DNA from: Candidatus Enterousia sp.
GTDB taxonomy: Bacteria > Pseudomonadota > Alphaproteobacteria > Rs-D84
Assembly: GCA_045645065.1 (NCBI GenBank)
Contig: JAZRIB010000005.1
Location: forward strand, 33,746-97,745
Length of the DNA stretch: 64,000 nucleotides
Reading direction: 5' to 3'
Of this stretch, positions 84 to 60,340 are shown piece by piece (within the stretch, counting starts at the first letter, position 1; every line of letters begins with the position of its first letter). The translations under genes were made by a program, and so were the position numbers. A model generated the notes under the pieces. That model was not told the origin of the DNA and searched no databases. It worked only from the letters and a program-made list of their open reading frames with translations.

Positions 84-1856
84 TTATTGCTGTTGAACAA
101 TTTCTTTGAAAATTTCCGCCGGTATTGTTCCACCTGTAATTTTATCGTTCATTGGTGTGAAATCATCATTTCCCATCCATACACCCATGACAATTTTATC
201 TGTTGCGCCAACAAACCAAGCGTCGCGATTTCCATTACTGGTTCCTGTTTTTCCGCCCATAACACCGTGTGTTCGTGCGCGTCCACCGGTTCCGCCTGGT
301 GCGATTACATCTGCCAGCATTTTTGTCATATGTTCAACTGTTTCTGGGTGCAAAACATTAATTGGTTCTGATGGGTTACGTTCATATAATACGTTACCTT
401 TTGCGTCTGTGATTTTTTTTATTGAATACGGACGTACAGAATTTCCATTGTTCCATATTACGGCATATATGTTTGTCAAATCCAACAATGTCATTTCAGA
501 TGCGCCCAATACAGTTGAATATTCGCGGCGCAGACGTGTTCCAACCCCCAAACGCCCCGCCATAGACAATATATTTTCAATACCATACATTTCAGTCAGT
601 TTAAGCGGGACAGAATTAACGCTTTTTGCAAAGGCCGTTGCCAACGTAATATCGCCATAATACTTTTCGTTATAGTTTTTAGGATTGTAATCCCCAATTG
701 CAAACGGAGAATCATTTACATAACTGTCTGGGGTTAATCCATTTTCTAATGCGACCAGATATACCACTGGCTTAAAACTGCTGCCGGGTTGACGTGGTGC
801 TGTTGCGCGATTAAATTGGCTGGCCTGATAATCTGTGCCACCAGACATAGCGCGAATTGCGCCATCTGTTTCCATTGCGACAACTGCGCCCTGGTATGGG
901 GGTGTTTTTTTTGATAGAGTTTCGGCAACGTGTTCTTGTAATTTCATATCCATTGTGGTATGCACGTACAGGTCTGATTCAAATGTTCCAATTCTTGATT
1001 TAACTTCGTCAATAACAAAATCTGTCCAGTATCGATACAGGTTTGTGTCTGCAACGCCAGTTGCGGGTTTTAATTGTCGCGCAGCCATTCGTGCCTGATC
1101 CAGTGTAATATATTCTTGGCGTACCATTTCTTGTAAAATTACACGTGCGCGTTGAATATTTTTTTCTGGATTACGCAACGGACTGTATGTTGTTGGGGCT
1201 TTTAACATTGCTGCAATCTGTGCGGCCTGGGCGATTGATAGTTTGTTTGCAGGTGTTTGGAACATCGCTTGTGCGGCGGCATCAATTCCGCGCAGTCCAC
1301 CAACCAGCGACACGCGATTCATATATAAATCCAGAATTTGATTTTTTGTAAAACGGTTTTCAAGCCAGTGTGATAAAATTAATTCTTGAACTTTGCGTGA
1401 TATTTTCTTTTCGCGACTTAAAAAAATATTTTTAGCAGTTTGTTGTGTTATTGTTGAACCGCCGGCCGCCACACGTTTTGATGCCAGATTTGCAAATGCT
1501 GCACGTGTAATTCCGCGCACATCGATTGGGCCGTGTTCAAAAAATCGTTTGTCTTCAATTGCGACGATTGCTTGCCATACATGCGGGGGCAGGGTATCAA
1601 CCGACACAGGCATTCCCATAATACGACCCGAAGAACGGATTTCATTGCCGTTTTTATCCAAGAACGTTAATGCTGCTGGGCGTGTTTCATTTAATATAGA
1701 ATCCAACGATGGCATACGCATATAAATAAATGCAACATATCCGCAAATGGTTAATCCGCCAATCAAGAACGCATTGAAAACCAATGCAAAAATTCGTCTT
1801 TTTATTGACGGTTTTTCTGGCGTATGTTTGCGATTTGCGGTTGTGGGATGTGCCAC
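84..1856 (-). CDS. Class A penicillin-binding protein (transglycosylase plus transpeptidase), 590 aa
   Basis: N-terminal TM anchor followed by the glycosyltransferase-51 motifs (EDKRFFEHGPIDVRG, GGSTITQQ). C-terminal transpeptidase-like region with a PGSSFKP-type SxxK serine. At 590 aa it is short for PBP1A, closer to PBP1C-sized. Confidence 0.8.
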   Translation of the reverse strand: MAHPTTANRKHTPEKPSIKRRIFALVFNAFLIGGLTICGYVAFIYMRMPSLDSILNETRPAALTFLDKNGNEIRSSGRIMGMPVSVDTLPPHVWQAIVAIEDKRFFEHGPIDVRGITRAAFANLASKRVAAGGSTITQQTAKNIFLSREKKISRKVQELILSHWLENRFTKNQILDLYMNRVSLVGGLRGIDAAAQAMFQTPANKLSIAQAAQIAAMLKAPTTYSPLRNPEKNIQRARVILQEMVRQEYITLDQARMAARQLKPATGVADTNLYRYWTDFVIDEVKSRIGTFESDLYVHTTMDMKLQEHVAETLSKKTPPYQGAVVAMETDGAIRAMSGGTDYQASQFNRATAPRQPGSSFKPVVYLVALENGLTPDSYVNDSPFAIGDYNPKNYNEKYYGDITLATAFAKSVNSVPLKLTEMYGIENILSMAGRLGVGTRLRREYSTVLGASEMTLLDLTNIYAVIWNNGNSVRPYSIKKITDAKGNVLYERNPSEPINVLHPETVEHMTKMLADVIAPGGTGGRARTHGVMGGKTGTSNGNRDAWFVGATDKIVMGVWMGNDDFTPMNDKITGGTIPAEIFKEIVQQQ

Positions 1857-3759: not shown

Positions 3760-3920
3760 AACATAAACTCCTTGTTCAGAACTATTTACTAGGATTATAG
3801 TCTAAAAAACGGTTTTGTCAACAGTTTTTTGTCAATATATTTTTTCTTGTTCTTTATTAAGGCGAATTTTGTAATGAAATATAAAAACAAAGAAAAAAAC
3901 CGGCATATGCCGGTTTTTTA

Positions 3921-5162
3921 TTATTTTGCGAATGAATAATCCATTTTCAAATGATCTGGATTATATGTACCGTTCATAATGGCCAGTGTGTCTTCAACGA
4001 TTACTAATTCTTCATTAGTTGCAATCATGAATATTTTTACACGACTGTCATCTGTGCTGATTACAGCCTGATCTATACCTTTGCGTGCCATTGTTGCGGC
4101 ATTTTTTTCTTTGTTTAATTTAATGCCCAGTTCTTCTAAACCTTCACAGAACTTTTCACGCAAATAATCGTCGTTTTCACCAACGCCTGCGGTGAATACT
4201 AATGCGTCCACATGCCCCAGTTCAGCCATATACGCACCGATATATTTTTTAACATTGTGTGCTTCCATATCAATAGCCAAACGACACAGGTCATTTGTAT
4301 CTTTGTTGCCTTCTACGTCGCGACGATCCGCAAAGCATTCTGTGACGCCCATTAATCCAGAATCTTTGTTCAAATGTTTTTGCATTTGGTCTGCGCTTAA
4401 ACCCAAACGGTTCATAACATATAATACAACACCTGGGTCTAAATCGCCTGGGCGTGTACCCATTGTTAATCCTGCCAATGGTGTCATCCCCAGCGATGTG
4501 TCAACACAAACACCGTTACGGATTGCCGTAGCAGATGCGCCCGATCCAATATGCAATGAAATCAGATTGCATTCATTTGCAGGTTTGCCCAACATTGTTG
4601 CTGCACGTTTTGAAACATATAAATGTGACGTTCCGTGGAAACCATATCGGCGAACACCTAATTCGCGATACCATGCACTTGGCACCGCATAGCGATACGC
4701 ATAATCTGGCATAGTCTGATGGAATGCTGTGTCAAACACAGCAACCTGGGTTGCGTTTGGTAACAATTGCTTTGCAGTTACAATCCCCATTAATGCAGGT
4801 GGATTATGCAATGGTGCAATTGCAGACAATTCATCAATTGTTTTGATAACTTCATCGTTAATTTCCACAGACGATGCAAATTTATCGCCACCCATAACGA
4901 CACGATGACCAACACCCTTAATTTCGTTCATATCCACAGACGCTTCACGCAACATAAACATAACGACGTTCAATGCTTCGTTATGATTCTGCATGCTGCA
5001 TTCTTTTTTCTGTTTTGTGCCGTCTGGGTATTTTTGTGTAACGAACGAATCCGGCAAACCGATTTTTTCAACGTTACCGCCGACGATTGCCTGTTTAGAA
5101 TCCGCGTCAAAAACCTGATATTTCAGTGATGACGAACCACAGTTCAATGCAAGTATGTACAT
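3921..5162 (-). CDS. ackA: Acetate kinase
   Basis: N-terminal ILALNCGSSSLKYQ ASKHA-fold motif, full-length 413 aa. Terminator hairpin at 3890-3925. Confidence 0.9.
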   Translation of the reverse strand: MYILALNCGSSSLKYQVFDADSKQAIVGGNVEKIGLPDSFVTQKYPDGTKQKKECSMQNHNEALNVVMFMLREASVDMNEIKGVGHRVVMGGDKFASSVEINDEVIKTIDELSAIAPLHNPPALMGIVTAKQLLPNATQVAVFDTAFHQTMPDYAYRYAVPSAWYRELGVRRYGFHGTSHLYVSKRAATMLGKPANECNLISLHIGSGASATAIRNGVCVDTSLGMTPLAGLTMGTRPGDLDPGVVLYVMNRLGLSADQMQKHLNKDSGLMGVTECFADRRDVEGNKDTNDLCRLAIDMEAHNVKKYIGAYMAELGHVDALVFTAGVGENDDYLREKFCEGLEELGIKLNKEKNAATMARKGIDQAVISTDDSRVKIFMIATNEELVIVEDTLAIMNGTYNPDHLKMDYSFAK

Positions 5163-5216: not shown

Positions 5217-5810
5217 TCAACAGTAAACATAGAATATTAATCGCCAATTTTCTGGCATAACATTGGTTCGTACACCGTTTTGTTTATGGTTTACCCAGTA
5301 TTCTTCATTTGCGACCATAAATCTTACACGCAACTGATTATTTTCAATCCACATATTTGGGGTGGGGGCGGGGCGGTTGCCGACACCAAATGCATATACG
5401 ACATCGCCAATTGCATATCCTGCGTCTGGGGTTTGGCATTCCAGCACCGGTGTTATAATTGGTGGAATTTTATTGATGTTACCGAACATGCATTCTGTAT
5501 ATGGAATTGTGCTGTTTAGTTTTATTTTCGGGCTTTCTATTAATGTAAGTGATACAGGCGCGAAACGTGCGAATAATTCTTCCCAGAATTCATCAGATAC
5601 ATTTGAAATGTCGAATTGGCCGTCTGGGCCAACACCGTCACCGGGGGTCGGGATTTGATCAGCACGTGCCAATGCAAAACCACCCAACGTTTCGCCATCG
5701 TGTACGCGTAATGTTTTTGCGTCAACATCATAAGAAATTTCGCCCACCATACCTGTGAATTTATTGTGCGCTTCAGACGTTCCGCGCCGTACTTGCAGAA
5801 TTTTAGACAT
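5217..5810 (-). CDS. Protein with phage tail-fibre N-terminal motif (197 aa)
   Basis: N-terminus ILQVRRGTSEAHNKFTGMVGEISYDVDAKTLRVHDGETLGG matches the conserved RRGT...GE..yD.D...L.igDG.T.gg signature of phage/prophage tail-fibre N-domains. The remainder is unassigned. Confidence 0.45.
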   Translation of the reverse strand: MSKILQVRRGTSEAHNKFTGMVGEISYDVDAKTLRVHDGETLGGFALARADQIPTPGDGVGPDGQFDISNVSDEFWEELFARFAPVSLTLIESPKIKLNSTIPYTECMFGNINKIPPIITPVLECQTPDAGYAIGDVVYAFGVGNRPAPTPNMWIENNQLRVRFMVANEEYWVNHKQNGVRTNVMPENWRLIFYVYC

Positions 5811-5914: not shown

Positions 5915-8434
5915 TCAAGCGGCAATGGAATGACGTCGTTGATATTCCGCAAACAGTGCCATCTTGTCCGCGTCCAATCTGCTCTGGGCTTTTTTCTTGG
6001 ACAATGTCAGTCGGTTATAGAATGGGCCGGTATGACTGTCGCGACCTGTTTCCAAGAAATTCCAATAATCGCGCAGTTCGTTCCATTGGTTTGTATGTTT
6101 GTCGTCCCATTCGTTTACAATCTTGTTGCGTCTTTCAATTTGAGTATCTAATTCTTTAATTTTGTCCCTAGAATTCTTAAATGTGTTGATGTTATCTGCG
6201 CGGTTCTGGTTGGCTGTCTGGGTTGCGTTATAGCGTTGTTCTGCACGATTAAATGCGTTTTCTTTAGCAGTCAGTGCCGTTTGTGCCGCATGTACATCGT
6301 TTTGTGCATTGGTGATACTGTTGTTGGCAACCTCATATTCGCCACCTGGGGCCATACCTGTGTGTAATTCATTTTGTAAAGTCTGGCGTTCTTGTAATTT
6401 TTGTTTTCGCAGGTCATACAGTTTTGTATATTGCGCCTGTAATTGCTGTGCCTTTAATTCATCCATAGCATTTGCATATGGTGTTGGAATTGCGTTTAAT
6501 TGTGATTTGATGCGCATATAATCGCTGCGCAGACGCGCGCTTTCTGTTGCTAAATCGGCAATTTTTCGTGGCAACTCAGTATTATATTTATCTATTGTTG
6601 CCTGGAATCCGTCTGCGACCTGTTGTTTTTGTTGTAAATCTTGGGCGGCGACATCTTTTTCTTGTTCTGCGTTTTCCAGATTGTCTTTTCGTCTTTTTTC
6701 CACATCTTTACCACGTTGTTGATGTCGTTCGTACATTGCAAGGGTATCATTTGTAATACCTGTGGCGTCGCGTCTGGTGATTTCAGTATGTTTTATTGTG
6801 TCGTCGCGTGCATTGTTTGTGTTTCTTTCTGCAATTGCAGCGTTTTTGTCTGCTGTGTTTTTTATTTCCCAATCTTGGGCTTTTGCATCAATTGCATCTG
6901 AGCGTCCTTTGAACTTACTGCCAGATTTATTGATTGTGTTCCCGATTATTGTAATAGAGTAACCAACAGCTTTTAACATTGTTTCCAGTGTTTTGTCCAT
7001 TACAACACCAAATGTTTTTGTAAATTCATTACTGTTTATGGACAGTTTTGGATCAGATAACAGAGTTATTTTTTCTTTGCTTAATTTGTCCATAATTTTA
7101 CTGGTGGTTAACCCATACTTACAAACCGAAATTACTTCCATTGCGGTTTTTGCTTCATCTATTTTTCCAGATTCAACTGCGCGTATAATCAATTCTTCGA
7201 TAACTGCATTTAATTGTGTGCCATGACTTAATGCGCCTGCGTATGCCTTTGGCATGACGGCTTCGATTTCACCCAGTGTTTTGTTTAACCAATCAAAATG
7301 TCCTGCCGCCGATGCAGATTTTTTTAGCAATGTGTTTTTAACCTTGCTTGCAGCATTGGTTATTCCACCAAGGCCATCTGTCGGTTTAACTTTTTCATTG
7401 TCCAGTGCGGCAACAATCTTGGATGCTTGGGGTGAAAAATACAAACGGTCACCCTGCAGCATTTTCCATTTTTCAAACACGTCGCTGTATGTGTCCTTGC
7501 GCCATTTTTCAAATTTCTGCATTGGGGTCAGCGTATCATGCTGGCTGTCCACCAAGAAATTTGGACTGTTTGAGTCATCGTATGCAGTTTTCTTTTTTGC
7601 TTCATCCAGCGCGGTTGTTATTTTGTTTGCAGGGAATTGTTCTTGTACTTTTTTATTCTGTGCAACAATTTGTAATAAATCATGATGACGTTCTTTGAAC
7701 GCGGCCAATTTGGTGGCGTCAACGTGCTTTGCATCAAATCCATTTTGGATTTTGCTAAAATCACACCCAGTCAGTCCCAACTCGTCTTTATAGTACGATA
7801 AATATTCAGAAACAGTTTTTAGTTTTTGCTGAAACTCATCATCTTCGTTGTATTGTTTTTTTGTTAATCCGTCTTTTAATTCGGATGCGGATATAATGCC
7901 CCATTCGCCCAACTTAACAGAAAACAGTGGTGCCAATGTCGCATTGTTTAGCATTCCTAACAGATTTGCAATTTCTGTTTCTGCATCTGGACTGGCGGAT
8001 ACTGTTGAAAACAATTTATCTGCTTGGGTACCAAAATTATCATGCAAGAACGCAGTTGCGACTTCGTTATACGTGTCTTTGTCGTCTGGATTTGCGAATT
8101 TCGATTTATTTGCATGCATTTTTCGAAATGCATCGCGGAATTCGATATAGAGTTTTTTCCACTCTTCATCATCCATTTCCCATGGATTAGATCCTGGTGC
8201 TGCTGGTGGTGTTGGGGCGCGTCCGTCTGGGATTTCGTTGTCAACCCATTCGCCATTTGTGTCTTTATGAACCAGGTCGCGTTTCCAGATTTTCATATCA
8301 CTATCTTTGGTGAAGTCATCGTCACCTTTGATGTAGTTGATAAAGGTTTCGCGCTTCATCAGTGGCATTTCATTGAAATGCAACTGCATAAAATATTGTA
8401 ATAAAAATTTATCCATTTTCACAGACATCGGCAT
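5915..8434 (-). CDS. Large hypothetical protein, 839 aa, Pro-rich linker plus long C-terminal coiled-coil, no signal peptide (candidate secreted effector)
   Basis: Long ORF with a good terminator at 5860-5890 on the minus strand. It has heptad-rich Q/K/E/R segments in the C-terminal third and a PTPPAAPGSNPW motif. Confidence 0.55.
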   Translation of the reverse strand: MPMSVKMDKFLLQYFMQLHFNEMPLMKRETFINYIKGDDDFTKDSDMKIWKRDLVHKDTNGEWVDNEIPDGRAPTPPAAPGSNPWEMDDEEWKKLYIEFRDAFRKMHANKSKFANPDDKDTYNEVATAFLHDNFGTQADKLFSTVSASPDAETEIANLLGMLNNATLAPLFSVKLGEWGIISASELKDGLTKKQYNEDDEFQQKLKTVSEYLSYYKDELGLTGCDFSKIQNGFDAKHVDATKLAAFKERHHDLLQIVAQNKKVQEQFPANKITTALDEAKKKTAYDDSNSPNFLVDSQHDTLTPMQKFEKWRKDTYSDVFEKWKMLQGDRLYFSPQASKIVAALDNEKVKPTDGLGGITNAASKVKNTLLKKSASAAGHFDWLNKTLGEIEAVMPKAYAGALSHGTQLNAVIEELIIRAVESGKIDEAKTAMEVISVCKYGLTTSKIMDKLSKEKITLLSDPKLSINSNEFTKTFGVVMDKTLETMLKAVGYSITIIGNTINKSGSKFKGRSDAIDAKAQDWEIKNTADKNAAIAERNTNNARDDTIKHTEITRRDATGITNDTLAMYERHQQRGKDVEKRRKDNLENAEQEKDVAAQDLQQKQQVADGFQATIDKYNTELPRKIADLATESARLRSDYMRIKSQLNAIPTPYANAMDELKAQQLQAQYTKLYDLRKQKLQERQTLQNELHTGMAPGGEYEVANNSITNAQNDVHAAQTALTAKENAFNRAEQRYNATQTANQNRADNINTFKNSRDKIKELDTQIERRNKIVNEWDDKHTNQWNELRDYWNFLETGRDSHTGPFYNRLTLSKKKAQSRLDADKMALFAEYQRRHSIAA

Positions 8435-31891: not shown

Positions 31892-31965
31892 GCGGGCGTA
31901 GTATAATGGTAGAACGAAAGCTTCCCAAGCTTTAGGCGAGGGTTCGATTCCCTTCGCCCGCACCA
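31892..31965 (+). tRNA. tRNA-Gly (anticodon CCC)
   Basis: Acceptor GCGGGCG/CGCCCGC, anticodon stem-loop AAAGC-TTCCCAA-GCTTT, T-arm GAGGGTTCGATTCCCTT, CCA. Terminator at 31966-31998. Confidence 0.85.
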
Positions 31966-31998
31966 GAAATTAACCGGCCTTGTGCCGGTTTAATTGTT

Positions 31999-32157
31999 GG
32001 CTATGCGGCGACGGAATTGAACCCGGCCAAGAGGGTTCGGGGCGCCAGTTGACGAGAACAAGTGAATACGAAGTTCGAGTCTTACGTAGCGAAAGGGGCC
32101 CATGGAGTGAAAACGAACATGGGAATCAGACATTCCCTTCGCCCGCACCAGAAATTA
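31999..32157 (+). repeat. tRNA-linked repeat element, copy G (~150 nt), ending in an exact 26-nt copy (32132-32157) of the tRNA-Gly 3' end plus 7 nt (first copy 31947-31972), followed by its own terminator
   Basis: ATTCCCTTCGCCCGCACCAGAAATTA occurs twice, 26/26 identical. The internal sequence is homologous to elements at 36868-36992 and 60166-60292. Confidence 0.6.
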
Positions 32158-32180
32158 AGCCGACCAATTATGGTCGGCTT

Positions 32181-32609
32181 TTATCTTGATTTGCCTGAAT
32201 TGCGTTTTAAGTTTTTATACGGATCTTTTTTGTGTTTCTTGTTTGTTTCGTCTGGGCGTTTTTTATAGACAGCTTTTATTTGTACCGTGAACACAGTGTT
32301 TTTTATTTCATCACAAATGTCGTATGTGTAATCAGTTTTATAAAGCGTATTTTCTTTCTTTTCGTTGTTGCACGTCTTGTGCATAGGTTGCAGATTTGAT
32401 ATATCGTCGTCGCCACCTTCGGATTTCGGAATAATATGATCCCATGTAAAATCTTTGATGTTATAAATAGGTTCATCGCACCATGGACAGCGTGGGGGTT
32501 GACCGCTGGCAATTAACAGGGCATAAATCTTTTTCAAGTGTTTGCGTGTTAACTGTTTTGGTTCTTGTTCCAGTGTCGTCAGCAACGCCAATAAGTCTTT
32601 CTTTTTCAT
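32181..32609 (-). CDS. HNH endonuclease
   Basis: CPWCDEPI...DHIIPKSEGGDDDISNLQPMHKTCNNEK is a canonical HNH motif. Confidence 0.8.
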   Translation of the reverse strand: MKKKDLLALLTTLEQEPKQLTRKHLKKIYALLIASGQPPRCPWCDEPIYNIKDFTWDHIIPKSEGGDDDISNLQPMHKTCNNEKKENTLYKTDYTYDICDEIKNTVFTVQIKAVYKKRPDETNKKHKKDPYKNLKRNSGKSR

Positions 32610-36107: not shown

Positions 36108-36656
36108 TTATCGTTTAGGGATAATGTTATTTTGAATATGCATAATCAATTTTAGCATATTTTTATCTGGATAACGATTAATAATTTCATCTGTGTTATT
36201 TTGAATTTCTTGGTTGGCAACCCTAAAAACATCTCCCATCGTCATTTGTTGCACGATTTCGATACGCTGTGCGCCACATTGGTACAGCTTGTTTTTATCA
36301 ATGCAACGTTGTTTATAAACTTGCGTCAGCGGATTAATTTCAAAAAAATAAACTTCTTGGTATGGTGATGTCAGCCCCATCCCAACATAGTACCACATAA
36401 GCATGTCAATAGTATTATCGGAAAAATGAATCACAGGCAGATGTGTTTGCAAAGACACTCTTGGATGCGCGGCTCCTGATTTAGAATACCACTGACACCA
36501 TTCATAAGGTTTTCCTTTTGCAGTAAATTGGCGTCCTGGATAAATATCTTCAATCTCAGATATGTAAAACTCGTCCATAAAACGAGAGTTCTGGACCGAT
36601 ACCATCTTAAAAAATCGTTTGTTTTCTTGCTGTTTCATAAAAAAGATGGTATACAA
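36108..36656 (-). CDS. Hypothetical protein, member of a local two-gene paralog family (182 aa)
   Basis: Clear similarity to the ORF at 37064-37591 (PGRQF.AK.K, VPV.HF.DN.iDmLMWY, W.CG...IEIV, EII.RYP). Confidence 0.45.
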   Translation of the reverse strand: MYTIFFMKQQENKRFFKMVSVQNSRFMDEFYISEIEDIYPGRQFTAKGKPYEWCQWYSKSGAAHPRVSLQTHLPVIHFSDNTIDMLMWYYVGMGLTSPYQEVYFFEINPLTQVYKQRCIDKNKLYQCGAQRIEIVQQMTMGDVFRVANQEIQNNTDEIINRYPDKNMLKLIMHIQNNIIPKR

Positions 36657-36744
36657 TTATGTTTGTTTGTCAAGTTGTAAAAAGATAATTTTTCCCACTT
36701 GCAATTATATTTATGATTATATATAATACGCAACGCAACCACAC

Positions 36745-36832
36745 GGAGCGTTGGCAGAGTGGTAATGCAGCAGATTGCTAATCTGTGACCGGTATTATCG
36801 GTCCATAGGTTCGAGTCCTATACGCTCCGCCA
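36745..36832 (+). tRNA. tRNA-Ser (anticodon GCT)
   Basis: Acceptor GGAGCGT/ACGCTCC, anticodon loop in CAGATTGCTAATCTG, long variable arm, T-arm GGTTCGAGTCC, CCA. Confidence 0.85.
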
Positions 36833-36867
36833 TAAAAATTCAACCCACCTTTTGGTGGGTTTAATTT

Positions 36868-37021
36868 TTATAAAGGAAAGTTGGACGAGAACCGTCAAGG
36901 TTCGATACGGAGTAGATTTGGCAAACGTAGTACAGCCAAATCGTCACGAGTGGAGAGGGGTATCCCCGCCCACTGTGTGGGCAGGGGAGTCCAGTCCTAT
37001 ACGCTCCGCCATAAAAATTCA
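36868..37021 (+). repeat. tRNA-linked repeat element, copy A (~125 nt), plus an exact 29-nt copy (36993-37021) of the tRNA-Ser(GCT) 3' end (first copy 36814-36842); possibly a degenerate pseudo-tRNA-Ser
   Basis: AGTCCTATACGCTCCGCCATAAAAATTCA is duplicated 29/29. The internal sequence GGTTCGATACGGAGTAGATTTGGCAAACGTAGTACAGCCAAATCGT is homologous to copy B at 60190-60240. Confidence 0.6.
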
Positions 37022-37063
37022 CCCCACCGCAAGGTAGGGTTAATTTTTTTGTCTCAGAATTAT

Positions 37064-37591
37064 TTACTTTGTTGCCTGGTTTTTTATTTTTGCACAATAT
37101 GCAATCATATCATAGTGTGGATATCGTGCGATTATTTCTGTGGGGTTTTGTGCTATTTCTTTGCATGCGTCTTGTGCCACCTGGGCCAGTGTGGTTTCCC
37201 TGACTATTTCAATTTTATTACATCCACATTGCCACAGTCTTGTTTCATCTGGAACGCGATTTTTATACACTTTCCCATGTGGTTTTATTTCAAAAAAATG
37301 TATTGTTTTTTCTGTGTCCTCAAAGAAATCCATAACTTCCCAATACCACATCAGTATATCAAGTGCGTTATCGCAAAAATGAAACACAGGCACCGATGCC
37401 AATACGCCAAAACGTTTGTAGGTATCTTTGAATTTTGCAACAAACTGACGTCCGGGTGTATATTCTTTGAAATCAGTAATGTTAAATGCTGCGCTTAAAC
37501 CATCTATAATGAATGGGTCGCGCCACATCATTTTATATGACTTGGTCATCAATGGTTTTTGTGTATCTATAGTATTCTTAGATTGTGTCAT
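37064..37591 (-). CDS. Hypothetical protein, paralog of 36108-36656 (175 aa)
   Basis: See the paralog entry above. Confidence 0.45.
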   Translation of the reverse strand: MTQSKNTIDTQKPLMTKSYKMMWRDPFIIDGLSAAFNITDFKEYTPGRQFVAKFKDTYKRFGVLASVPVFHFCDNALDILMWYWEVMDFFEDTEKTIHFFEIKPHGKVYKNRVPDETRLWQCGCNKIEIVRETTLAQVAQDACKEIAQNPTEIIARYPHYDMIAYCAKIKNQATK

Positions 37592-37779
37592 TTTTTATCT
37601 TTTTTTGTTGTTGTTCTTACAGAATAAATGTTTTTGTCAAATTGTCCAGCATAATTTTGACACAGGGTCTTGTGTATTTACCCGTTGCTATATTATTGCA
37701 AAAGGAATATAATCGTAACATCTGTCGCATATTCTAATATGCACGTTCGGTTTTTACAAAAAAAAAGAAAGGAGAAAAC

Positions 37780-38298
37780 ATGAAAAAAACAGCGTTTTTG
37801 TTATTGCCACTGGCATTGGCCGCGTGCGGAACAACATATCATACGGGTCGTATGGGTGCTACGATTGGTGGTGTTGATATGCAATTTATTCCGAAACAGG
37901 CAAAAATCAATGTTGATACAGACAAAAGAATAACAGGAACTGCTAAATGTACGTCAAATTTCTGGTTTTTTGAATCTGCACCCGAACGTCAAGCGTATGG
38001 TCCAGGCCTGCAAGAAGATGCTGGTAACTTTGCATCTAAGGCATGTATGGCGGCGGCAATGTATGACGCAATCAGTAAAACAAACGCTGACATCTTGGTT
38101 GCGCCACAATATACCGCGGTTCAAGATGGTGTGTTCTGCTTTGGTCGCAGATGTTTGCACGGCACGACCCAAGTCATAGTTTCTGGTTTTTCTGGAAAAA
38201 TATCATCTGTAACAGACGTTGACCCAGAAGTTGTCAAAGAATTACAGAAAGGTGCCGCTAGCAAAGAAGAAAAATCCAGTTTTCCATCGTTGTTCTAA
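37780..38298 (+). CDS. Lipoprotein, hypothetical (172 aa)
   Basis: Lipobox LALAACG after the signal peptide. Four Cys residues. Confidence 0.5.
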   Translation: MKKTAFLLLPLALAACGTTYHTGRMGATIGGVDMQFIPKQAKINVDTDKRITGTAKCTSNFWFFESAPERQAYGPGLQEDAGNFASKACMAAAMYDAISKTNADILVAPQYTAVQDGVFCFGRRCLHGTTQVIVSGFSGKISSVTDVDPEVVKELQKGAASKEEKSSFPSLF

Positions 38299-38320
38299 CA
38301 ATCAAGAATAAGGATAAATA

Positions 38321-39346
38321 ATGAAAAAATTATACACATCTGTATTGTGTATGACTTTGCTTGCGCCAATTGTGGCACAGGCAGAAATCTGCACAGATTT
38401 TGACGAAGATTTTAACATTATTGAATTTGACTGCGCCGAAGGTGTTAATGCTGCCCGTAAACGTATTGCCGCAGAATCCAAAAAGGCACAAGAGCAATAT
38501 CAGGCGGTTGCCGAAGATTTGCGCAAAGCAGAAGAGTTGTTAAAACAAGAAAGGGAAAAGCGTGGGGCGTTGGAGGCTATTAGTGTCGAATACGAAAAAC
38601 AGGTGGCTGCTGCTCGCGCTGAAAGCGACAAACAAGTCAAGCTTGAATCAGAACGCCTTGCCGAAGATTTGCGCAAAGTCGAAGACCAGTTAAAACAAGA
38701 AAAAGCAAAACGCAGAGCCTTAGAAAATGAAAAAATTGTATCGGATTTAGCCAAAACTGGCGGATGGAAGGTTATCGCAGGTCTAGGGGTAACTGGCTGG
38801 GTTGGTCCCAATGTGACCGCAGATGCTTTTCAGGGGCGTGATGTAAGCGGTTGGACGGTTTATAACGCAGACTATAATGCGAATGGTATTGGTTTTACAG
38901 CGTCATTGGGCGCGCGATACTATTTTAATCAAAGCAACAAATGGTTTTCTCAGATAAGTTTGTCTGTTGCTTCTGGCTATAATCATGAGGTTCAGATTAA
39001 CACCATCGAGCCGCCTCAGGGCGTCATTTCAAGCGCGCCGCAATTGTCTGAAATCAAAATAAATGATTTTATGTACATTGACGCAATCGTTGGGCGCCTG
39101 GTTTTGGATAAAACCTACTTATATGGTCGGTTTGGGTTTGGTGCAATGGATTATGATATGGGCGATTACGAGACAGCATATCCAGATTTCGAGCCCTATG
39201 CAGGTGCATGCATGTTTGGTCTTGGATTGGAACATAACGTGTGGCAGGGGTTGTTTGCTTATGCTGAAATGAATGTGTTGGTTGGTGACTTCTTTTTAGG
39301 AGATCATTTCTTGAAATTTGATTTAGGCGTCAAATATCAGTTCTAA
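38321..39346 (+). CDS. Outer-membrane protein with N-terminal periplasmic coiled-coil and C-terminal beta-barrel
   Basis: Signal peptide, two tandem coiled-coil repeats (AEDLRKAEELLKQEREKRGALE / AEDLRKVEDQLKQEKAKRRALE), Gly/aromatic-rich strands and an OMP-type C-terminal signature ...LGVKYQF. Terminator at 39347-39385. Confidence 0.55.
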   Translation: MKKLYTSVLCMTLLAPIVAQAEICTDFDEDFNIIEFDCAEGVNAARKRIAAESKKAQEQYQAVAEDLRKAEELLKQEREKRGALEAISVEYEKQVAAARAESDKQVKLESERLAEDLRKVEDQLKQEKAKRRALENEKIVSDLAKTGGWKVIAGLGVTGWVGPNVTADAFQGRDVSGWTVYNADYNANGIGFTASLGARYYFNQSNKWFSQISLSVASGYNHEVQINTIEPPQGVISSAPQLSEIKINDFMYIDAIVGRLVLDKTYLYGRFGFGAMDYDMGDYETAYPDFEPYAGACMFGLGLEHNVWQGLFAYAEMNVLVGDFFLGDHFLKFDLGVKYQF

Positions 39347-39555
39347 GAACCACATAACAACCCGCCATGTGGCGGGTTTTTCTTTGACTTGACTTTTATT
39401 GGCGGTCTGTGCCAGAATGCATCTGACATGACAATACGTTTTATCAATTTTTACTGTTGTTGTTAATCATTGCATTTTTGCAAACTGATTTTGTTTGCAT
39501 TTAAATAACCTGTTTACTAAACTCTACACATAAAATTAACAAAGGAAGAACGCAT

Positions 39556-55392: not shown

Positions 55393-55483
55393 GGAGTCGT
55401 CGCATAGTTGGTCTAGTGCGCTACATTGGAAATGTAGTATACTCGCAAGGGTATCAAGGGTTCGAATCCCTTCGACTCCGCCA
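55393..55483 (+). tRNA. tRNA-Ser (anticodon GGA)
   Basis: Acceptor GGAGTCG/CGACTCC, anticodon stem-loop CTACA-TTGGAAA-TGTAG, long variable arm, T-arm AAGGGTTCGAATCCCTT, CCA. Confidence 0.8.
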
Positions 55484-55522: not shown

Positions 55523-55649
55523 TTGACAGTTAAGAAAAAGCATATTAACATTAGTAGCGTGACTTGTGATAATTAATATTATCATAAGCATTGTCCACTA
55601 ATGTGGATAGATATAAATAGGGTTCATCGCCCAAAACTCAAAGGAGTTA

Positions 55650-56624
55650 ATGATGAAAAAAATTTACGACGATCCCAATGTCGTTATATACTCAAAAACT
55701 GAAACAGATCCCGTCTTTCAAGAAATAAAAACCTCTGATGGCAAACTTTTTAATACGCCAAAACCAACGATTTATGACCTGGGAATTGGGCTGGGGGCTG
55801 CGGAATTGATGTTTATAAACCCAAATACCGGCGAATGGCTACATGGTGGCGATGGTGAAATTATACCAATAAGCAAAAAGTCGAATAAAGTTGTGTTTAA
55901 CGAAAAAGTCTGGTCGTTAAGTGGTTTGGCGACGCATTTGCAAAGTAAATACCCCGAATCTAAATGTTCGGATGCCCAAGTGTATGATTTTTTTGCCTAC
56001 GTATATGAAGGTCGTACATTGGCAAAGATGGAGCGTGAGTTTTTGGAAAAATACTATAACATTTCCATACAAAGGGGGCGTTTTGAATTGTTGGCAGAAC
56101 AAAGGTATTTAGCAGAACAAAAACAATACGACGCAAATGATTTACATAACGATGTATATAAAATCGTAGATTGGCAAAACGATGATTTGACATCTGTAAA
56201 AGGGTTTAAATGGACTATAGATGGTACAAAATTTGCTGGCGAAACACGAAAGTTTAAAGAAATGTTCAAGCAAATCATTTCTTGTTTATATAATCATGCT
56301 CCACAGGTTTTGGATGTTGAGATGATACGCATCTTGTCGAACTCCGACGCATTATTTAATCCTACAATTAAAAAAATTATTAGTGTTTCTGGTGAAGTAC
56401 CTGTGGTAAATGGTAATATTGGTGGGTTAGAAGTTTCAAATATGCCAAATAATCATAGACATATTGATACGTATACCGATAGCATGTGGATAGAGGTGGT
56501 GTCTGGCTGGCTTTACATTTGGGGGCTATATTCCAATAATGATTTAAAAAAGAAGCTACAAGCGCTATTAAAGTTATACGGAATAGAGCCGAATAAGCTT
56601 ACAATATCAATTCAAGAACGCTAA
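55650..56624 (+). CDS. Hypothetical protein (324 aa), first gene of the candidate island
   Basis: ORF with a GGAG RBS. No family recognised. Confidence 0.45.
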   Translation: MMKKIYDDPNVVIYSKTETDPVFQEIKTSDGKLFNTPKPTIYDLGIGLGAAELMFINPNTGEWLHGGDGEIIPISKKSNKVVFNEKVWSLSGLATHLQSKYPESKCSDAQVYDFFAYVYEGRTLAKMEREFLEKYYNISIQRGRFELLAEQRYLAEQKQYDANDLHNDVYKIVDWQNDDLTSVKGFKWTIDGTKFAGETRKFKEMFKQIISCLYNHAPQVLDVEMIRILSNSDALFNPTIKKIISVSGEVPVVNGNIGGLEVSNMPNNHRHIDTYTDSMWIEVVSGWLYIWGLYSNNDLKKKLQALLKLYGIEPNKLTISIQER

Positions 56625-56655
56625 AATAAAAGACATCGCTATTTGGCGATGTTTT

Positions 56656-57714
56656 TTATTTGTGCAAAGTGTAAAACACGCCACGGGTTGTGCCTTGCTT
56701 TGATATGTGTCCCCGTTTAACCAACGCTTGTACCGCCTTGCGAATGGTTTCTGGATTTTTATCCATCGCAGATACAATCTGTGGCATGGTCAATTCTGGT
56801 GTTTTATGAAACAGTTCCAAAATCTGATTCTGTGTTGCAGACAGTTTTGCAACACTTGCACCACGTGCCTTTGCGATTTTGTCTTCCAGTTGGCGTTTTT
56901 GTGCAACCAATGCCCGAACAAAGAAAGTCAGCCATGGTTCATAGTTGATCTTGTCGCCCCAGATGGTTTTTTGCGTGCCACGTAATGCACGATAGTATGC
57001 GTCCTTGGTCGCTTCTATAATAGACTCCATAGATGCATATGGCATATATGTATATCCACTTTTCAGCATCAGCATAACAGTCAATGCACGCGACAAACGC
57101 CCATTACCATCGGTAAATGGATGGATGGACAGAAAATGTATCACAAACACCCCAATAGCAATAATAGGGTGAAAGAATTTGTCGGCCAACGCATCATTGG
57201 TCCATTTTACTGTTTCACTCATCAGGCGTGGCGTATCAAATGGTGTAGCGGTTTCGAATATAGAACCGATTTCATTACCGTTTGCGTCAAATGCAGCGAC
57301 ACGGTTGCCGTCTTTTTTATATTCGCCACGATGGCGGGTGTCCTTGTCAGAGTAATTCAATAATATTTTATGCAACTGCTTAATATAATTCTCACTAAGC
57401 GGTATAGACGCATAGTTTTCAAATATGGTATTGATTACATCTGAATATCCGGCAACTTCCTGCTCGTCTCTGGTGGCAAATGACTGACGATTGATATTGG
57501 CAAATAATGCCTCAATTTCAGTATCTGTCATACGATTGCCTTCTATACGATTAGATGACCCAACAGATTCAATTGTTGCAACACGACGCATAACACGCAG
57601 ATCATCTGCGGACAGTTTTACTGCCCCGCCAGTCCACGCACCATTAAATGCATCAATCTCGGCAATGCCGTTCAGCATTTCTGGGGTTATAATAATATCT
57701 CGATTATTAGGCAT
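56656..57714 (-). CDS. Fic-family protein (class II, N-terminal inhibitory SxxxEG motif) with C-terminal winged-helix domain
   Basis: Fic motif HPFTDGNGRLSRAL. Inhibitory-helix motif SNRIEG lies upstream in the same polypeptide. C-terminal HTH-like region (KNPETIRKAVQALVKRGHISKQGTTRGVFY). Confidence 0.85.
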   Translation of the reverse strand: MPNNRDIIITPEMLNGIAEIDAFNGAWTGGAVKLSADDLRVMRRVATIESVGSSNRIEGNRMTDTEIEALFANINRQSFATRDEQEVAGYSDVINTIFENYASIPLSENYIKQLHKILLNYSDKDTRHRGEYKKDGNRVAAFDANGNEIGSIFETATPFDTPRLMSETVKWTNDALADKFFHPIIAIGVFVIHFLSIHPFTDGNGRLSRALTVMLMLKSGYTYMPYASMESIIEATKDAYYRALRGTQKTIWGDKINYEPWLTFFVRALVAQKRQLEDKIAKARGASVAKLSATQNQILELFHKTPELTMPQIVSAMDKNPETIRKAVQALVKRGHISKQGTTRGVFYTLHK

Positions 57715-57809
57715 ACCAAATCCTTTTTATGTTTTACCAGATTTTACCAGATGATTCCCAGAAAGTCAATATTTTTCCCAGATAGCACATCGGCTTTATT
57801 GCGATATAA

Positions 57810-58487
57810 TCATTCTTCTATGTTGGAATATGATATGGCTTCATCTATTTTGTCCATCAACAAGCTAGCAAAAATCAATCGCTTTATAGCCATGTCCTTC
57901 GATATGATCTGATTTTCGTGTGCCTTGGGGTTTCTTATGCCTGTCATTGCGCCAGCAAATATGTTCATATATCCAATTTGGACATCTTTGCCAGTCTGTG
58001 TTTCTATGTTCTCAAAAGTTAACAGTGGGTTATTAGGCGAAAATACATGATTCATTAGGGCACTACCGTCTAGTTCCTCATTTCGAAATTTGCGATATAA
58101 CTTCTTTAATCTAGAGTTAATTTCCTTGAATGCAGACTCTACACAATCGGCATATTGTTGTGCTAGGAATTTGGGTTGTATAATTGGCAACAATAAGGGG
58201 TGAATACACTTCCAGAAAGGTTCGTCCCGAGCCTGTAAAATATGACGTCGTAAAAGCTCTAGATTTTTTGATATAATGCCAGCTTCTGGTAGTGTCATAT
58301 ATTCCGTTGCTGTATACAATAAATTGTCGGATATTTTCTTCCAATACATAGTGTCTTCCAGGTGGTTTTCATAGATAAAATCCGTAAGACTCCTATGGAA
58401 ACTGACGTATTCTGGGGTATTAAATCTGAACTTTCCCTTATAATCATGCAGTTTATAAAATTCGTTTATAATATCATCAATATTCAT
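57810..58487 (-). CDS. Hypoth_ymh/TIGR02391-like protein (abortive-infection-associated domain family)
   Basis: C-terminal FAGAMTGIRNPKAHENQIISKDMAIKRLIFASLLMDKID matches the conserved GxRNxxAH core of this family. Confidence 0.5.
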   Translation of the reverse strand: MNIDDIINEFYKLHDYKGKFRFNTPEYVSFHRSLTDFIYENHLEDTMYWKKISDNLLYTATEYMTLPEAGIISKNLELLRRHILQARDEPFWKCIHPLLLPIIQPKFLAQQYADCVESAFKEINSRLKKLYRKFRNEELDGSALMNHVFSPNNPLLTFENIETQTGKDVQIGYMNIFAGAMTGIRNPKAHENQIISKDMAIKRLIFASLLMDKIDEAISYSNIEE

Positions 58488-58815
58488 GTCTATTTATCCT
58501 TTATTCTTGTATATAGGATTTTATATGAAAAATACAAGAGTTTTATAGTGGGAAAATCCCTGTAAATTCCTTGTAAAAATGGAATTTGTATATGGTTGTT
58601 CGTGATAAAATCATACTCCGCCAGTATTCGGGCATGTATGCCGATACAGATAAAAAGCCCGCTCTCTAGCGGGATTTTTCATGCATTGACTCTGGTATGG
58701 ACGAAAACAGCCCATTTTTAGGCGGTGAAATACGGTTTTCTATACAACGCCCTTTTTTCGATAGTCAATGGTAAAAAAACAAAACTTGCACTTCTGCAAG
58801 TTTGTTATTTAACGG

Positions 58816-60024
58816 TTATTTTTTGTCATTGGTGTATTTTCCAATTTGGATATATATGAATGTCGCGATAATCCTTAATACCGCCAATATTATAAGAAGA
58901 TACGGTAATATGTTATATCCACCAAACATACCAACATACATCAATGCAATAGTTCCGCCCCATCTTCCAATAAAAGACATAACCTGGCGCGCGGCAAGGT
59001 ATTCTGCGCGATATGATTGTGTTACTAATTTTGTTTTTGCAAGGTTTAATATATTAACCGAAGACACTTGATCCATCGTCGCAACACCTAATGATACAGC
59101 ACCTGCATATACCAATGTGCTAAATCTGTTAAGTTCAGACATAAGGTATATTATCGATCCGATTAGTAATATTGAACAAAGTCCTACGACCCATTTAAAA
59201 TCTCGATTTGAACAAAAACGTCCAAACAACCACATAGCCATTGCAGTAAGAAGCGCAAAGAATGTTGTCCATGCACCCAAAGTTATATCTGTGTGAAAAA
59301 TATAAACAATGTACAATATTCCCACACTTTCTAATTCATATGCAAGCCCCCGCAAGAATTCTGCTAAAAATAATTTCCTCATACATAGTATCTTCACTGA
59401 TTTATGCATAAAACCGACCAGATCAGCCGATTTTTTAGCATAATTTTGTACAGGCGGCATTATAAATAGTAAATAACATTCAATTACTCCCATAAATACT
59501 AAAAGCCATGCTATATTTTGCAACGAACCTATCGTTATCAACACCCCTAATGTAATCGGGAGCAGAATTTTTACAATATTTGTTATCGCGACATCGGTTC
59601 CATAGAAAAACATCATACGGCATGCAGATACTTTATCTATCACCATTTGCTGTTGTGCCATACTGTATAATGCATGTTGTATACCATACAACATCCCTAA
59701 AATCATAATCCAATTGGCGGCATGAACACCTAACAATGCAATCAAAATTACCAGAATAAGTTGCACAACTATGTGTGATCCAAAAACAACCTTGATATTA
59801 CCATGCTTACATCGGTTTATCATCAAAACAAATGAAGCCATAATGGCAAAATAAAAAAATAAGTCATATATAGATACTGATATAAATTCATTAATTGAAT
59901 TACGTATCAAAAAAGATACAACAAATGTCCCTAAAAATAATTGTGAAATACCACGAAACACAGAAAAACTGATTAATATCCATTCTGTTTTATTTAGTTT
60001 ATACGTGATATCTTTCTCTCTCAT
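58816..60024 (-). CDS. Polytopic membrane protein, MFS-like permease (402 aa)
   Basis: About 12 hydrophobic helices. Terminator at 58778-58812 on the minus strand. Confidence 0.5.
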   Translation of the reverse strand: MREKDITYKLNKTEWILISFSVFRGISQLFLGTFVVSFLIRNSINEFISVSIYDLFFYFAIMASFVLMINRCKHGNIKVVFGSHIVVQLILVILIALLGVHAANWIMILGMLYGIQHALYSMAQQQMVIDKVSACRMMFFYGTDVAITNIVKILLPITLGVLITIGSLQNIAWLLVFMGVIECYLLFIMPPVQNYAKKSADLVGFMHKSVKILCMRKLFLAEFLRGLAYELESVGILYIVYIFHTDITLGAWTTFFALLTAMAMWLFGRFCSNRDFKWVVGLCSILLIGSIIYLMSELNRFSTLVYAGAVSLGVATMDQVSSVNILNLAKTKLVTQSYRAEYLAARQVMSFIGRWGGTIALMYVGMFGGYNILPYLLIILAVLRIIATFIYIQIGKYTNDKK

Positions 60025-60117
60025 GGTATGAGAAAAATATCATATATAAAAATTTAAAACAATAAAAAACTTATTTAGGTATACCAAATTGTGCAATAGA
60101 ATTTTAGTCCGCCAGAA

Positions 60118-60165
60118 ATAATCAAACGCCCCATTGTGGGCGTTTTATTTTTGTGCCGAAATCGG
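60118..60165 (+). repeat. Direct repeat DR2 (attR-like copy of tRNA-Ser(GGA) 3' end plus terminator)
   Basis: TCCGCCAGAAATAATCAAACGCCCCATTGTGGGCGTTTTATTTTTGTG versus DR1, about 42/46 identical with a 2-nt indel. Confidence 0.6.
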
Positions 60166-60340
60166 GGTTCGAACCCGGTAAAGCCACGATAGTGGCGTGG
60201 GTTCGACAAAGAGTAGGTTTTGCAAACATAGTACGGCAAAACCGTTAGGAATGCCCCACAGCACCGCCGTCCGCGGGGCGAGGGAATACTTCGCCCCCGC
60301 CAGGATAATAAAAACACCCCACAAAATACTTGTGGGGGTT
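60166..60340 (+). repeat. tRNA-linked repeat element, copy B (~127 nt), followed by a third degenerate copy of the CCGCCA-N-AAATAAT-hairpin-T-run motif (60286-60340)
   Basis: GGTTCGACAAAGAGTAGGTTTTGCAAACATAGTACGGCAAAACCGT is homologous to copy A. GGGGTTCGAACCCGGTAAAG is homologous to copy G (GGAATTGAACCCGGCCAAG). It ends ...TTCGCCCCCGCCAGGATAATAAAAACACCCC-hairpin. Confidence 0.55.

Follow-up and report, generated by a model that had tools for sequence, protein, structure and literature searches.

The window analysed here, a stretch of 64,000 nucleotides from a genome assembly of Candidatus Enterousia sp., belongs to a bacterial chromosome and carries the genes for S16, RimM, TrmD, PFK, CysRS, RpoD, LeuRS, ValRS, GroEL and LigA. 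ARAGORN called eight tRNA genes in it, in agreement with the Rfam tRNA model, and one of these, tRNA-Ser(GCT), is intact on the plus strand at 36745-36832 (60.1 bits under the Rfam model). Directly behind this gene lies a cassette of ~180 bp, hereafter A, which has no protein gene and no ORF inside it and is bounded by an exact repeat: the 29-mer AGTCCTATACGCTCCGCCATAAAAATTCA occurs twice, at 36814-36842 and at 36993-37021, and no match was obtained in 100 shuffles. The parts of the locus are as follows.

36699-36727: promoter-like TTGCAA-17-TATAAT upstream of tRNA-Ser(GCT) (promoter scan)
36814-36842, plus strand: first copy of the repeat, from mid T-loop (A58) to CCA (19 nt) with 10 nt of trailer (exact match)
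36842-36871, plus strand: terminator T1, an 8-bp stem with a T tract, at once the end of the tRNA unit and the cassette's left part
36872-36908, plus strand: 5' module GGAAAGTTGGACGAGAACCGTCAAGGTTCGATAC, with a T-loop-like GGTTCGA at 36899-36905 that forms the left joint of the core
36896-36953, plus strand: conserved core hairpin (covariance model R1, 75.7 bits)
36964-36987, plus strand: GC-rich hairpin P3, CCCC GCCCAC TGT GTGGGC A GGGG
36993-37021, plus strand: second copy of the repeat, with the partial tRNA at 36993-37011 and trailer at 37012-37021; the right end of the cassette, with a homologue in L025
37021-37050, plus strand: terminator T2, bidirectional, 3' of the second repeat (terminator scan)

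The first-pass annotation had reported the repeat at these same positions and terminators after both flanks, and both observations held: intrinsic-terminator-like, bidirectional hairpins were found 3' of the two repeats, at 36842-36861 and 37021-37040. Its view that the 3' part of the segment copies the tRNA 3' end likewise agrees with the exact 29-nt match. The internal boundaries had to be redrawn. The GGAGTAG that had been placed at 36868 begins at 36909, 36843-36908 being the first terminator and the 5' module, and what had been described as a T-arm-like hairpin before the second repeat is the GC-rich stem at 36964-36987, the T-arm being copied in its 3' half only. Within the core, the base helix consists of GUUC/GAGU and GAU/GUC followed by an 8-nt bulge, and the P2 stem comprises 8 bp (36915-36922 with 36935-36942) with a 12-nt tip that contains 2 inner pairs. 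The GTTG(G)ACGAGAAC..GTTCGA motif of the 5' module is shared with element C, described below. In L025, the one relative in which another copy of A was found (fetched loci are given as L numbers), T1 is kept with a different loop; the loop and some pairs of P3 are changed there and in the copies of B.

Two paralogous minus-strand ORFs flank tRNA-Ser(GCT) and A, at 36108-36656 (182 aa) and 37064-37591 (175 aa), and one, both or neither of them is present in relatives. A terminator homologous to that of the relatives' tRNA-Ser(GCT) lies at ~39360-39390, just 5' of the CysRS leader, so that 36843-39358 is extra relative to L020, L021 and L023; this extra stretch holds, besides cassette A, three ORFs: the one of 175 aa on the minus strand, one of 172 aa that is lipoprotein-like and one of 341 aa that is beta-barrel-like. 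Inside the last of these is a 67-nt direct repeat (38508-38724, 79% identity, 150-nt spacing), which suggests an internal protein repeat. Far upstream, a 197-aa protein with an Mtd_N domain, which is the N-terminus of the tropism determinant of diversity-generating retroelements, is encoded at 5217-5810 on the minus strand and adjoins an 839-aa ORF without a family match (5915-8434, minus strand).

Two other cassettes with the layout of A were found in the window. One is copy B, which had been reported to share its conserved core with A and does so (B at ~60150-60302); the other, C, was absent from the earlier entry on copy A and has a different core.

55393-55483: tRNA-Ser(GGA), separated from cassette B by a 4.6-kb island
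60106-60337, plus strand: sister cassette B, with the core shared with A
60124-60145, plus strand: terminator of B, after a remnant AGTCCGCCA and trailer
60197-60254, plus strand: core hairpin of B (covariance model), preceded by the 5' module V1 and followed by P3
to 60302, plus strand: tail CTTCGCCCCCGCCA of B, with a terminator at 60317-60337
31892-31965: tRNA-Gly(CCC)
31966-32180, plus strand: cassette C, after tRNA-Gly(CCC), with terminator, 5' module, core, repeat and terminator
31947-31973 and 32132-32158: exact 27-nt repeat of the tRNA-Gly(CCC) 3' end
32033-32131, plus strand: core of C, structured and unlike that of A and B (GGGTTCG...CAGAC)

In C, a terminator is followed by ~140 nt of different sequence, the 27-nt repeat and a second terminator. 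The att-type duplications are exact over 29 nt at A, 27 nt at C and at least 14 nt at B. Fourteen nucleotides of C, GAAGTTCGAGTCTT at 32070-32083, are identical to the T-arm of tRNA-Leu(CAG) (19757-19843), so that the core of C contains a T-arm-like hairpin matching a third tRNA. An HNH endonuclease ORF of 142 aa adjoins C at 32181-32609 (minus strand); C and this ORF are both absent from L019, a 94% relative, and in L013, which has the HNH gene, the tRNA-Gly repeat recurs with a 95-nt insert of unrelated sequence. We rejected the idea that this ORF is part of an RNA-guided nuclease of the IscB/HEARO type, as the HNH domain alone matches in a protein of 142 aa. No recombinase gene was found in or beside A, B or C, the neighbouring ORFs having no recombinase domain; none of the ~40 window ORFs scanned encodes a recombinase or transposase, and neither these ORFs nor the gene tables of 48 loci contain TnpA, TnpB or Y1.

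In other genomes the B-type element stands directly behind tRNA-Ser(GGA). The attL and attR of the 4.6-kb island that intervenes in the window are reciprocal hybrids of an L007-like attB and the island attP, with the crossover in the trailer aatcaaacg, which shows classical site-specific recombination to be at work on the tRNA-Ser(GGA) site. The island itself (55531-60105) encodes a 324-aa protein without assigned function, Fic, Hypoth_Ymh and MFS, carries an internal remnant ACTCCGCCAG at 58617 and has no recombinase gene; the start of the same island (the ORF without assigned function, Fic and Ymh) follows tRNA-Ser(GGA) in L043.

We scanned 185,579 species genomes for the A/B core pattern and obtained 10 loci, all from gut metagenome-assembled genomes named 'Candidatus Enterousia' or Alphaproteobacteria. 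The core is present in at least 12 genomes, behind two different tRNAs, and the 64 kb window holds two A/B cores, with none at its many other GTTCG sites. Two exact-pattern scans of viral contigs and blastn searches of phage and plasmid collections gave no match to the core, and a phage or plasmid origin was rejected on these grounds.

Relatives were obtained through neighbouring proteins, which for B yielded 18 loci around two identical RpoZ proteins. Copy A was absent from four of five close relatives (L019, L020, L021 and L023), in all of which tRNA-Ser(GCT) was kept, and was present in the fifth, L025. The empty A sites are those of L020, L021 and L023, where the tRNA is followed by one terminator and then by CysRS; in L019, whose flavoprotein is 94% identical, a DUF559 endonuclease cassette stands in place of A. 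These A-less relatives also lack the neighbouring genes, so at the A locus a deletion may have taken place instead of an insertion. The C site is empty in L019, with the tRNA and its terminator followed by LysM, and neither C nor A showed similarity to a 350-nt non-coding stretch in that relative. As for the DUF559 (Vsr-like endonuclease) gene of L019, which encodes 123 aa, it forms a single-gene cassette just 3' of tRNA-Ser(GCT), flanked by ~57-nt direct repeats that begin CTCCGCCA / CTCCGCCATATTATT and have GC-rich hairpins within them.

At the RpoZ loci the empty sites are precise. B is carried by four of the 18 (L036, L038, L041 and L048). In four others (L040, L042, L044 and L047), from strains whose RpoZ is the same as in L041 and L048, the trailer ggaataatcaaa, a terminator and the flank come immediately after the tRNA, in the sequence that follows the tail of B in L036, L038 and L008; the remaining loci are occupied by different islands, many of which have large serine recombinases. 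Where the site is filled, the tRNA has the cassette-specific caaaaatcaaacg as its trailer and the native ggaataatcaaa stands after the tail, as is to be expected of a cassette that supplies the tRNA with a new 3' flank.

The tail of the cassettes follows the tRNA next to it. In nine genomes, the tail of B equals the last 14 nt of the adjoining tRNA across four variants of tRNA-Ser(GGA) (CTTCGACTCC, CTTCGTCTCC, CTTCATCTCC and CATCGACTCC), the variant of L007 including a T-stem change; the exception is the window, whose B tail, CTTCGCCCCC, does not match tRNA-Ser(GGA). In L048 two cassettes stand in tandem, one of C-type and one of B-type. The core of the first is homologous to window C from GGGTTCGGGGCG to GGGAATCAGAC, with conserved stems and variable tips, and the cassette ends in AATCCCTTCGACTCCGCCA, which is the 3' end of tRNA-Ser(GGA) and not of tRNA-Gly. 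From A58 onward, the tail of C agrees exactly with the neighbouring tRNA in both places; the tail thus depends on which tRNA is resident, and the core can be separated from it as a module. The 5' modules are likewise separable, V2 being attached to B cores in L001, L009 and L010, to an island in L007 and to the C core of L048. These comparisons demonstrated a family of cassettes that is gained and lost between close strains, stacks in tandem, swaps modules and takes the tail of the resident tRNA.

The segment had been taken for a degenerate second tRNA-Ser, a reading contradicted by the invariance of GGAGTAG against varying tails and by the absence of the unit from relatives that keep the tRNA. 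The related notion of a decayed tRNA duplicate fails on the sister cassette with its precise empty sites and on the different core that takes the resident tRNA's tail. Conservation of the repeat in sister genomes had been named as a test of the degenerate-tRNA reading, and the exact repeat is not kept: in L025, the only other copy of A, 6 of the 19 tail positions disagree with the tRNA. Copy A is inserted DNA flanked by a partial tRNA copy and not a decayed duplicate.

Islands with recombinase genes were found at the same tRNA sites, with a PF00589 integrase in L026 and large serine recombinases in L006 and L031-L046. In L026 (~3825-4490), tRNA-Ser(GCT) is truncated in its anticodon stem, and a DUF3631 gene lies beside it together with the PF00589 tyrosine integrase; the element is of the conventional integrative kind and uses the same tRNA, at another position within it. 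Many of the rpoZ-tRNA-Ser(GGA) loci (L031-L046) have islands that combine a serine recombinase with Abi_C, HNH_3 or, in the case of L044, a gene for Cas9. In L006 (3233-3361, minus strand), an island with a 538-aa large serine recombinase interrupts B after CAGCCCCGCCA, and in L002, from the same genome bin, a complete B stands at the right end of island-type DNA with a ParB-like gene upstream; the two contigs are probably the two ends of one island. Several island right ends show CCCTGTAAATTCCCTG ~40 nt before a CTCCGCCA remnant. L027 (GCA_045645945.1) has three B-related copies in 12 kb, one behind the tRNA, one 11 kb off and one truncated and abutting the ValRS stop, and its two full copies share an altered P2 stem and tip; the gene 3' of B in L001-L010 is not ValRS, which tblastn finds only in L027. 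In L009, two inverted 12-nt copies of the tRNA-Gly(GCC) 3' end (GAGCAAAGGGGC) lie in GC-rich repeats 3' of that tRNA (526-602, minus strand), and the GGGGTATCCCC hairpin motif occurs both in this region and in the A cores.

The set used to analyse covariation in the core included L025 (A-type) and L027 (B-type, with altered stem and tip) and represents ~4 independent lineages, a small sample, in which the 18 pairs of the 57-nt hairpin are formed in 98.4% of cells. Six pairs are changed on both sides and four on one side, all of the latter to G·U; none of 500 shuffles reached the covariation score, and in slid controls at most 46% of cells were paired. The base helix common to all cores is GUUCGAC/GUC..GAAU. 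The 12-nt tip is constant in length and in having its 2 inner pairs (A-U or G-C; C-G or U-A) but not in sequence, and the loop of P3 differs in nearly every genome while the stem holds, including one U·G. Paired and unpaired positions of the core are strongly conserved between genomes whose RpoZ proteins are only 77-93% identical, the loops being saturated with changes and the stems and single-stranded core positions constant. Read as the minus strand, the hairpin is paired at 87.3% instead of 98.4%, since each of the 14 G·U turns into A·C. Folding energy is better than in shuffles on both strands (z -3.7 and -3.3) and so does not discriminate between them. These patterns support a reading of the A/B core as a structured plus-strand RNA, or plus-strand single-stranded DNA, and the hairpin points to a putative transcribed structured RNA. 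No sigma-70-like promoter of their own was found for A, B or C on either strand; with no promoter between the first terminator and the core, transcription would need read-through. Two further structural elements were considered and rejected, namely the V1 helix TCGAACCC/GGGTTCGA as a general stem P1, which is absent from V2 and from the A copies, and a pseudoknot between the P2 loop and the tail, for which complementarities of 4-5 nt occur in different registers in window A and L025 and are probably due to chance.

Consistent with the first-pass annotation, neither ARAGORN nor Rfam called a tRNA or tmRNA in the segment: ARAGORN gave nothing at 36833-37060, Rfam at E up to 10 returned only the true tRNA within 36700-37100, and Rfam 15 at E up to 10 gave no meaningful match to A, B or C. 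A tRNA or tRNA pseudogene was rejected by acceptor pairing, since GAGTAG is invariant against the tails CGACTCC, CGTCTCC, CATCTCC, GCCCCC and TGCGCCC. Acceptor-like pairing of 5-6 bp is predicted in window A and lost in L025 and the B copies; the constancy of GGAGTAG, the would-be 5' strand, while the tails vary means that no acceptor stem is conserved. A hidden or odd tRNA (Sec-like or allo-tRNA) was rejected because a cloverleaf is missing and the strand that would form the 5' side of the acceptor shows no covariation. A tmRNA, including the two-piece alphaproteobacterial form hinted at by GGTTCGAC and GGAC, was rejected for lack of an ARAGORN or Rfam call, a tag frame and an acceptor stem, and no tmRNA was called in the window or in any fetched locus. 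A small ORF through B (ATGAGTAGG...) has no ATG in window B and both A copies, and its frame crosses terminators; a universal housekeeping RNA is refuted by the precise empty sites. The cassette resembles tmRNA, YrlA and tRNA pseudogenes in its tRNA-identical 3' end with CCA, in GGTTCGA and in its integrase-used site, but differs from them in having no acceptor stem, cloverleaf, tag frame or ARAGORN or Rfam call.

tRNA genes are classic landing sites of islands and prophages, and the partial tRNAs that adjoin them usually pass for passive scars. Williams reportedly distinguished sublocation classes of tRNA integration sites in 2002. On balance, and with moderate confidence, we consider A to be a gene-less integrative cassette in the 3' end of tRNA-Ser(GCT) that would be moved in trans, its enzyme, transcription and function being putative. 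In order, the cassette would comprise a new trailer and terminator that replace those of the tRNA, a 5' module with GGTTCGA at its end, a module of ~90 nt with two conserved hairpins, and a copy of the tRNA from mid T-loop to 10 nt past the CCA, with a terminator behind it. The 29-nt repeat would be an attL/attR-type duplication (a 'partial tRNA') produced by recombination into the 3' part of the tRNA, with the gene left intact. Because the same tRNA sites carry integrase-bearing and serine-recombinase-bearing islands, we infer that a site-specific recombinase encoded elsewhere could move the cassette in trans, by way of the stretch shared with the tRNA 3' end. The cassette would give the tRNA a new 3' end and terminator and leave the partial tRNA copy at its far end; its module may be transcribed by read-through from the strong tRNA promoter as far as the second terminator, and the fold may be kept either for the spread of the cassette or as a useful small RNA. 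The match between tail and tRNA would follow from insertion, one copy being the host's own displaced end, and mismatched replacement ends would cripple the tRNA and hence be selected against, with no need for an acceptor stem in the RNA. Against this integrative reading, no recombinase or transposase gene was found in or beside the cassettes, transcription would need read-through, a ~180-bp circle would be unusually small for integrase chemistry, a simple attP/attB model leaves the constant GGTTCG(A) before the core unaccounted for, and the tails of L025 and window B mismatch their tRNAs.

Islands bounded by partial tRNAs, such as P4-like integrase islands and tycheposon arrays (10.1101/2020.12.28.424599), are like the cassettes in the intact tRNA with a 3' repeat, in tandem stacks split by partial tRNAs, in empty sites and in integrase islands on the same tRNA. 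However, the cassettes are ~180-205 bp long, encode no integrase or other protein, carry a conserved folded module as their only cargo and have modules reshuffled at the T-loop-like GGTTCGA. Size, the lack of a gene, the RNA-type fold and module shuffling at a T-loop-like joint set the cassettes apart from the integrative elements known at tRNA genes. CIMEs (cis-mobilizable elements) are non-autonomous derivatives of integrative elements, are att-flanked, lack a recombination gene, are kilobases long and bear genes, while MITEs have terminal inverted repeats and short target duplications; the cassettes are CIME- or MITE-like in their att-type flanks, in lacking a recombination gene and in presumably using the enzyme of a larger element at the same site, and no CIME or MITE is known to have a conserved RNA-type structure and a replacement tRNA end. 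Integron attC cassettes are also small, arrayed by a fixed site and joined at imperfect hairpins with variable tips, but IntI and GTTRRRY/RYYYAAC core sites are absent here, and the repeated unit is a tRNA 3' end with a terminator.

The constant joint bears on the main rival. GGTTCG(A) stands directly before all ~20 cores, and GGTTCG could itself be core sequence; removal of the core rebuilds a T-arm and 3' end at C (GAGGGTTCG joined to ATTCCCTTCGCCCGCACCA), in L048 (GGGTTCG joined to AATCCCTTCGACTCCGCCA) and at A (AGGTTCG(A) joined to AGTCCTAT). The core could thus belong to a second layer, as an element whose insertion site is the T-loop of partial tRNA copies. According to this rival, which we regard as unlikely, the core alone (~85-115 nt) is mobile as an IS200/IS605-type miniature single-stranded DNA transposon (PATE) or similar element, inserted into a T-loop immediately 3' of GTTCG, the T-loop being that of a harmless partial tRNA copy from an earlier integration, with the two hairpins as left-end and right-end recognition hairpins and the tail as target flank. 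It would explain why every core lies between GGTTCG(A) and the tRNA from A58, why the two hairpins are subterminal, why no target duplication surrounds the core and why the same core occurs with different tails and 5' modules. The cassettes may share with IS200/IS605 PATEs and their right-end RNAs (omega RNA/reRNA) an insertion 3' of a short fixed sequence without duplication, two subterminal hairpins and, after the scaffold, a 3' stretch equal to the flanking target DNA. However, the fetched loci and the scanned window ORFs have no Y1 transposase or TnpB, the two A/B cores are the only ones in 64 kb with so many other GTTCG sites free, GGGTTCG may just as well be core sequence, and the G·U pattern is as compatible with RNA as with single-stranded DNA. 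Unlike IS200/IS605 elements, the cassettes have no nearby TnpA or TnpB, no Rfam match and very few copies; unlike the arrangement for an omega RNA, an intact tRNA target lies 180 bp from the cassette, which an active guided nuclease would cut.

The conservation of the core could also reflect a small-RNA gene with a functional tRNA-like 3' end, in which selection keeps the tail equal to the tRNA and the cassette-like distribution is secondary; the tail might then serve 3' processing or CCA maintenance, mimicry or sequestration of tRNA-Ser factors, or pairing with the tRNA 5' strand. Such a gene would account for the constancy of paired and unpaired core positions at 77-93% RpoZ identity, for RNA-type covariation on the tRNA strand, for a tail that tracks four tRNA variants including the T-stem change of L007, and for a trailer and terminator layout that copies that of the tRNA. 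We nevertheless think it improbable, as the cassette is dispensable (precise empty sites at identical RpoZ, and A missing from four of five relatives), the tails of L025 and window B have mismatches, the tail has no covarying partner strand and no promoter was found.

A bolder pair of readings, which we consider quite improbable, is that the cores form a new class of tiny mobile elements (85-115 nt) in the T-loop of tRNA-gene copies after GGTTCG, or that they are RNAs whose tRNA-identical tail programs a trans recombinase or nuclease to the matching tRNA gene. On the T-loop-insertion reading, they would be what the mobile T-loop introns are to archaeal tRNAs, in bacteria, and if either were true, the target would be specified by the RNA or single-stranded DNA of the cassette itself and not by a dedicated integrase. 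That A is an inert scar, either the remnant attachment region of a larger island stripped of its genes or a decayed tandem tRNA copy, is very unlikely: the region is clearly a hot spot, and hot spots of integration at tRNAs commonly contain partial tRNA copies along with degenerate remnants (10.1101/2020.12.28.424599), but loops saturated with changes beside constant stems and single-stranded core, 6 compensatory pairs, the same core in at least 12 genomes at two different tRNAs and the lack of residual tRNA signal at E up to 10 all count against decay.

Under the integrative reading that we prefer, the scars at these tRNA genes bracket protein-free cassettes of ~200 bp in uncultured gut alphaproteobacteria with reduced genomes. 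Such cassettes can mislead the annotation of tRNAs, pseudogenes and island boundaries in metagenome-assembled genomes, and they offer a simple system for the minimal requirements of an attachment site. If they are mobilised in trans, they would be among the smallest integrative elements described, and if their fold is expressed as RNA, they would represent an uncatalogued RNA family riding on tRNA promoters.
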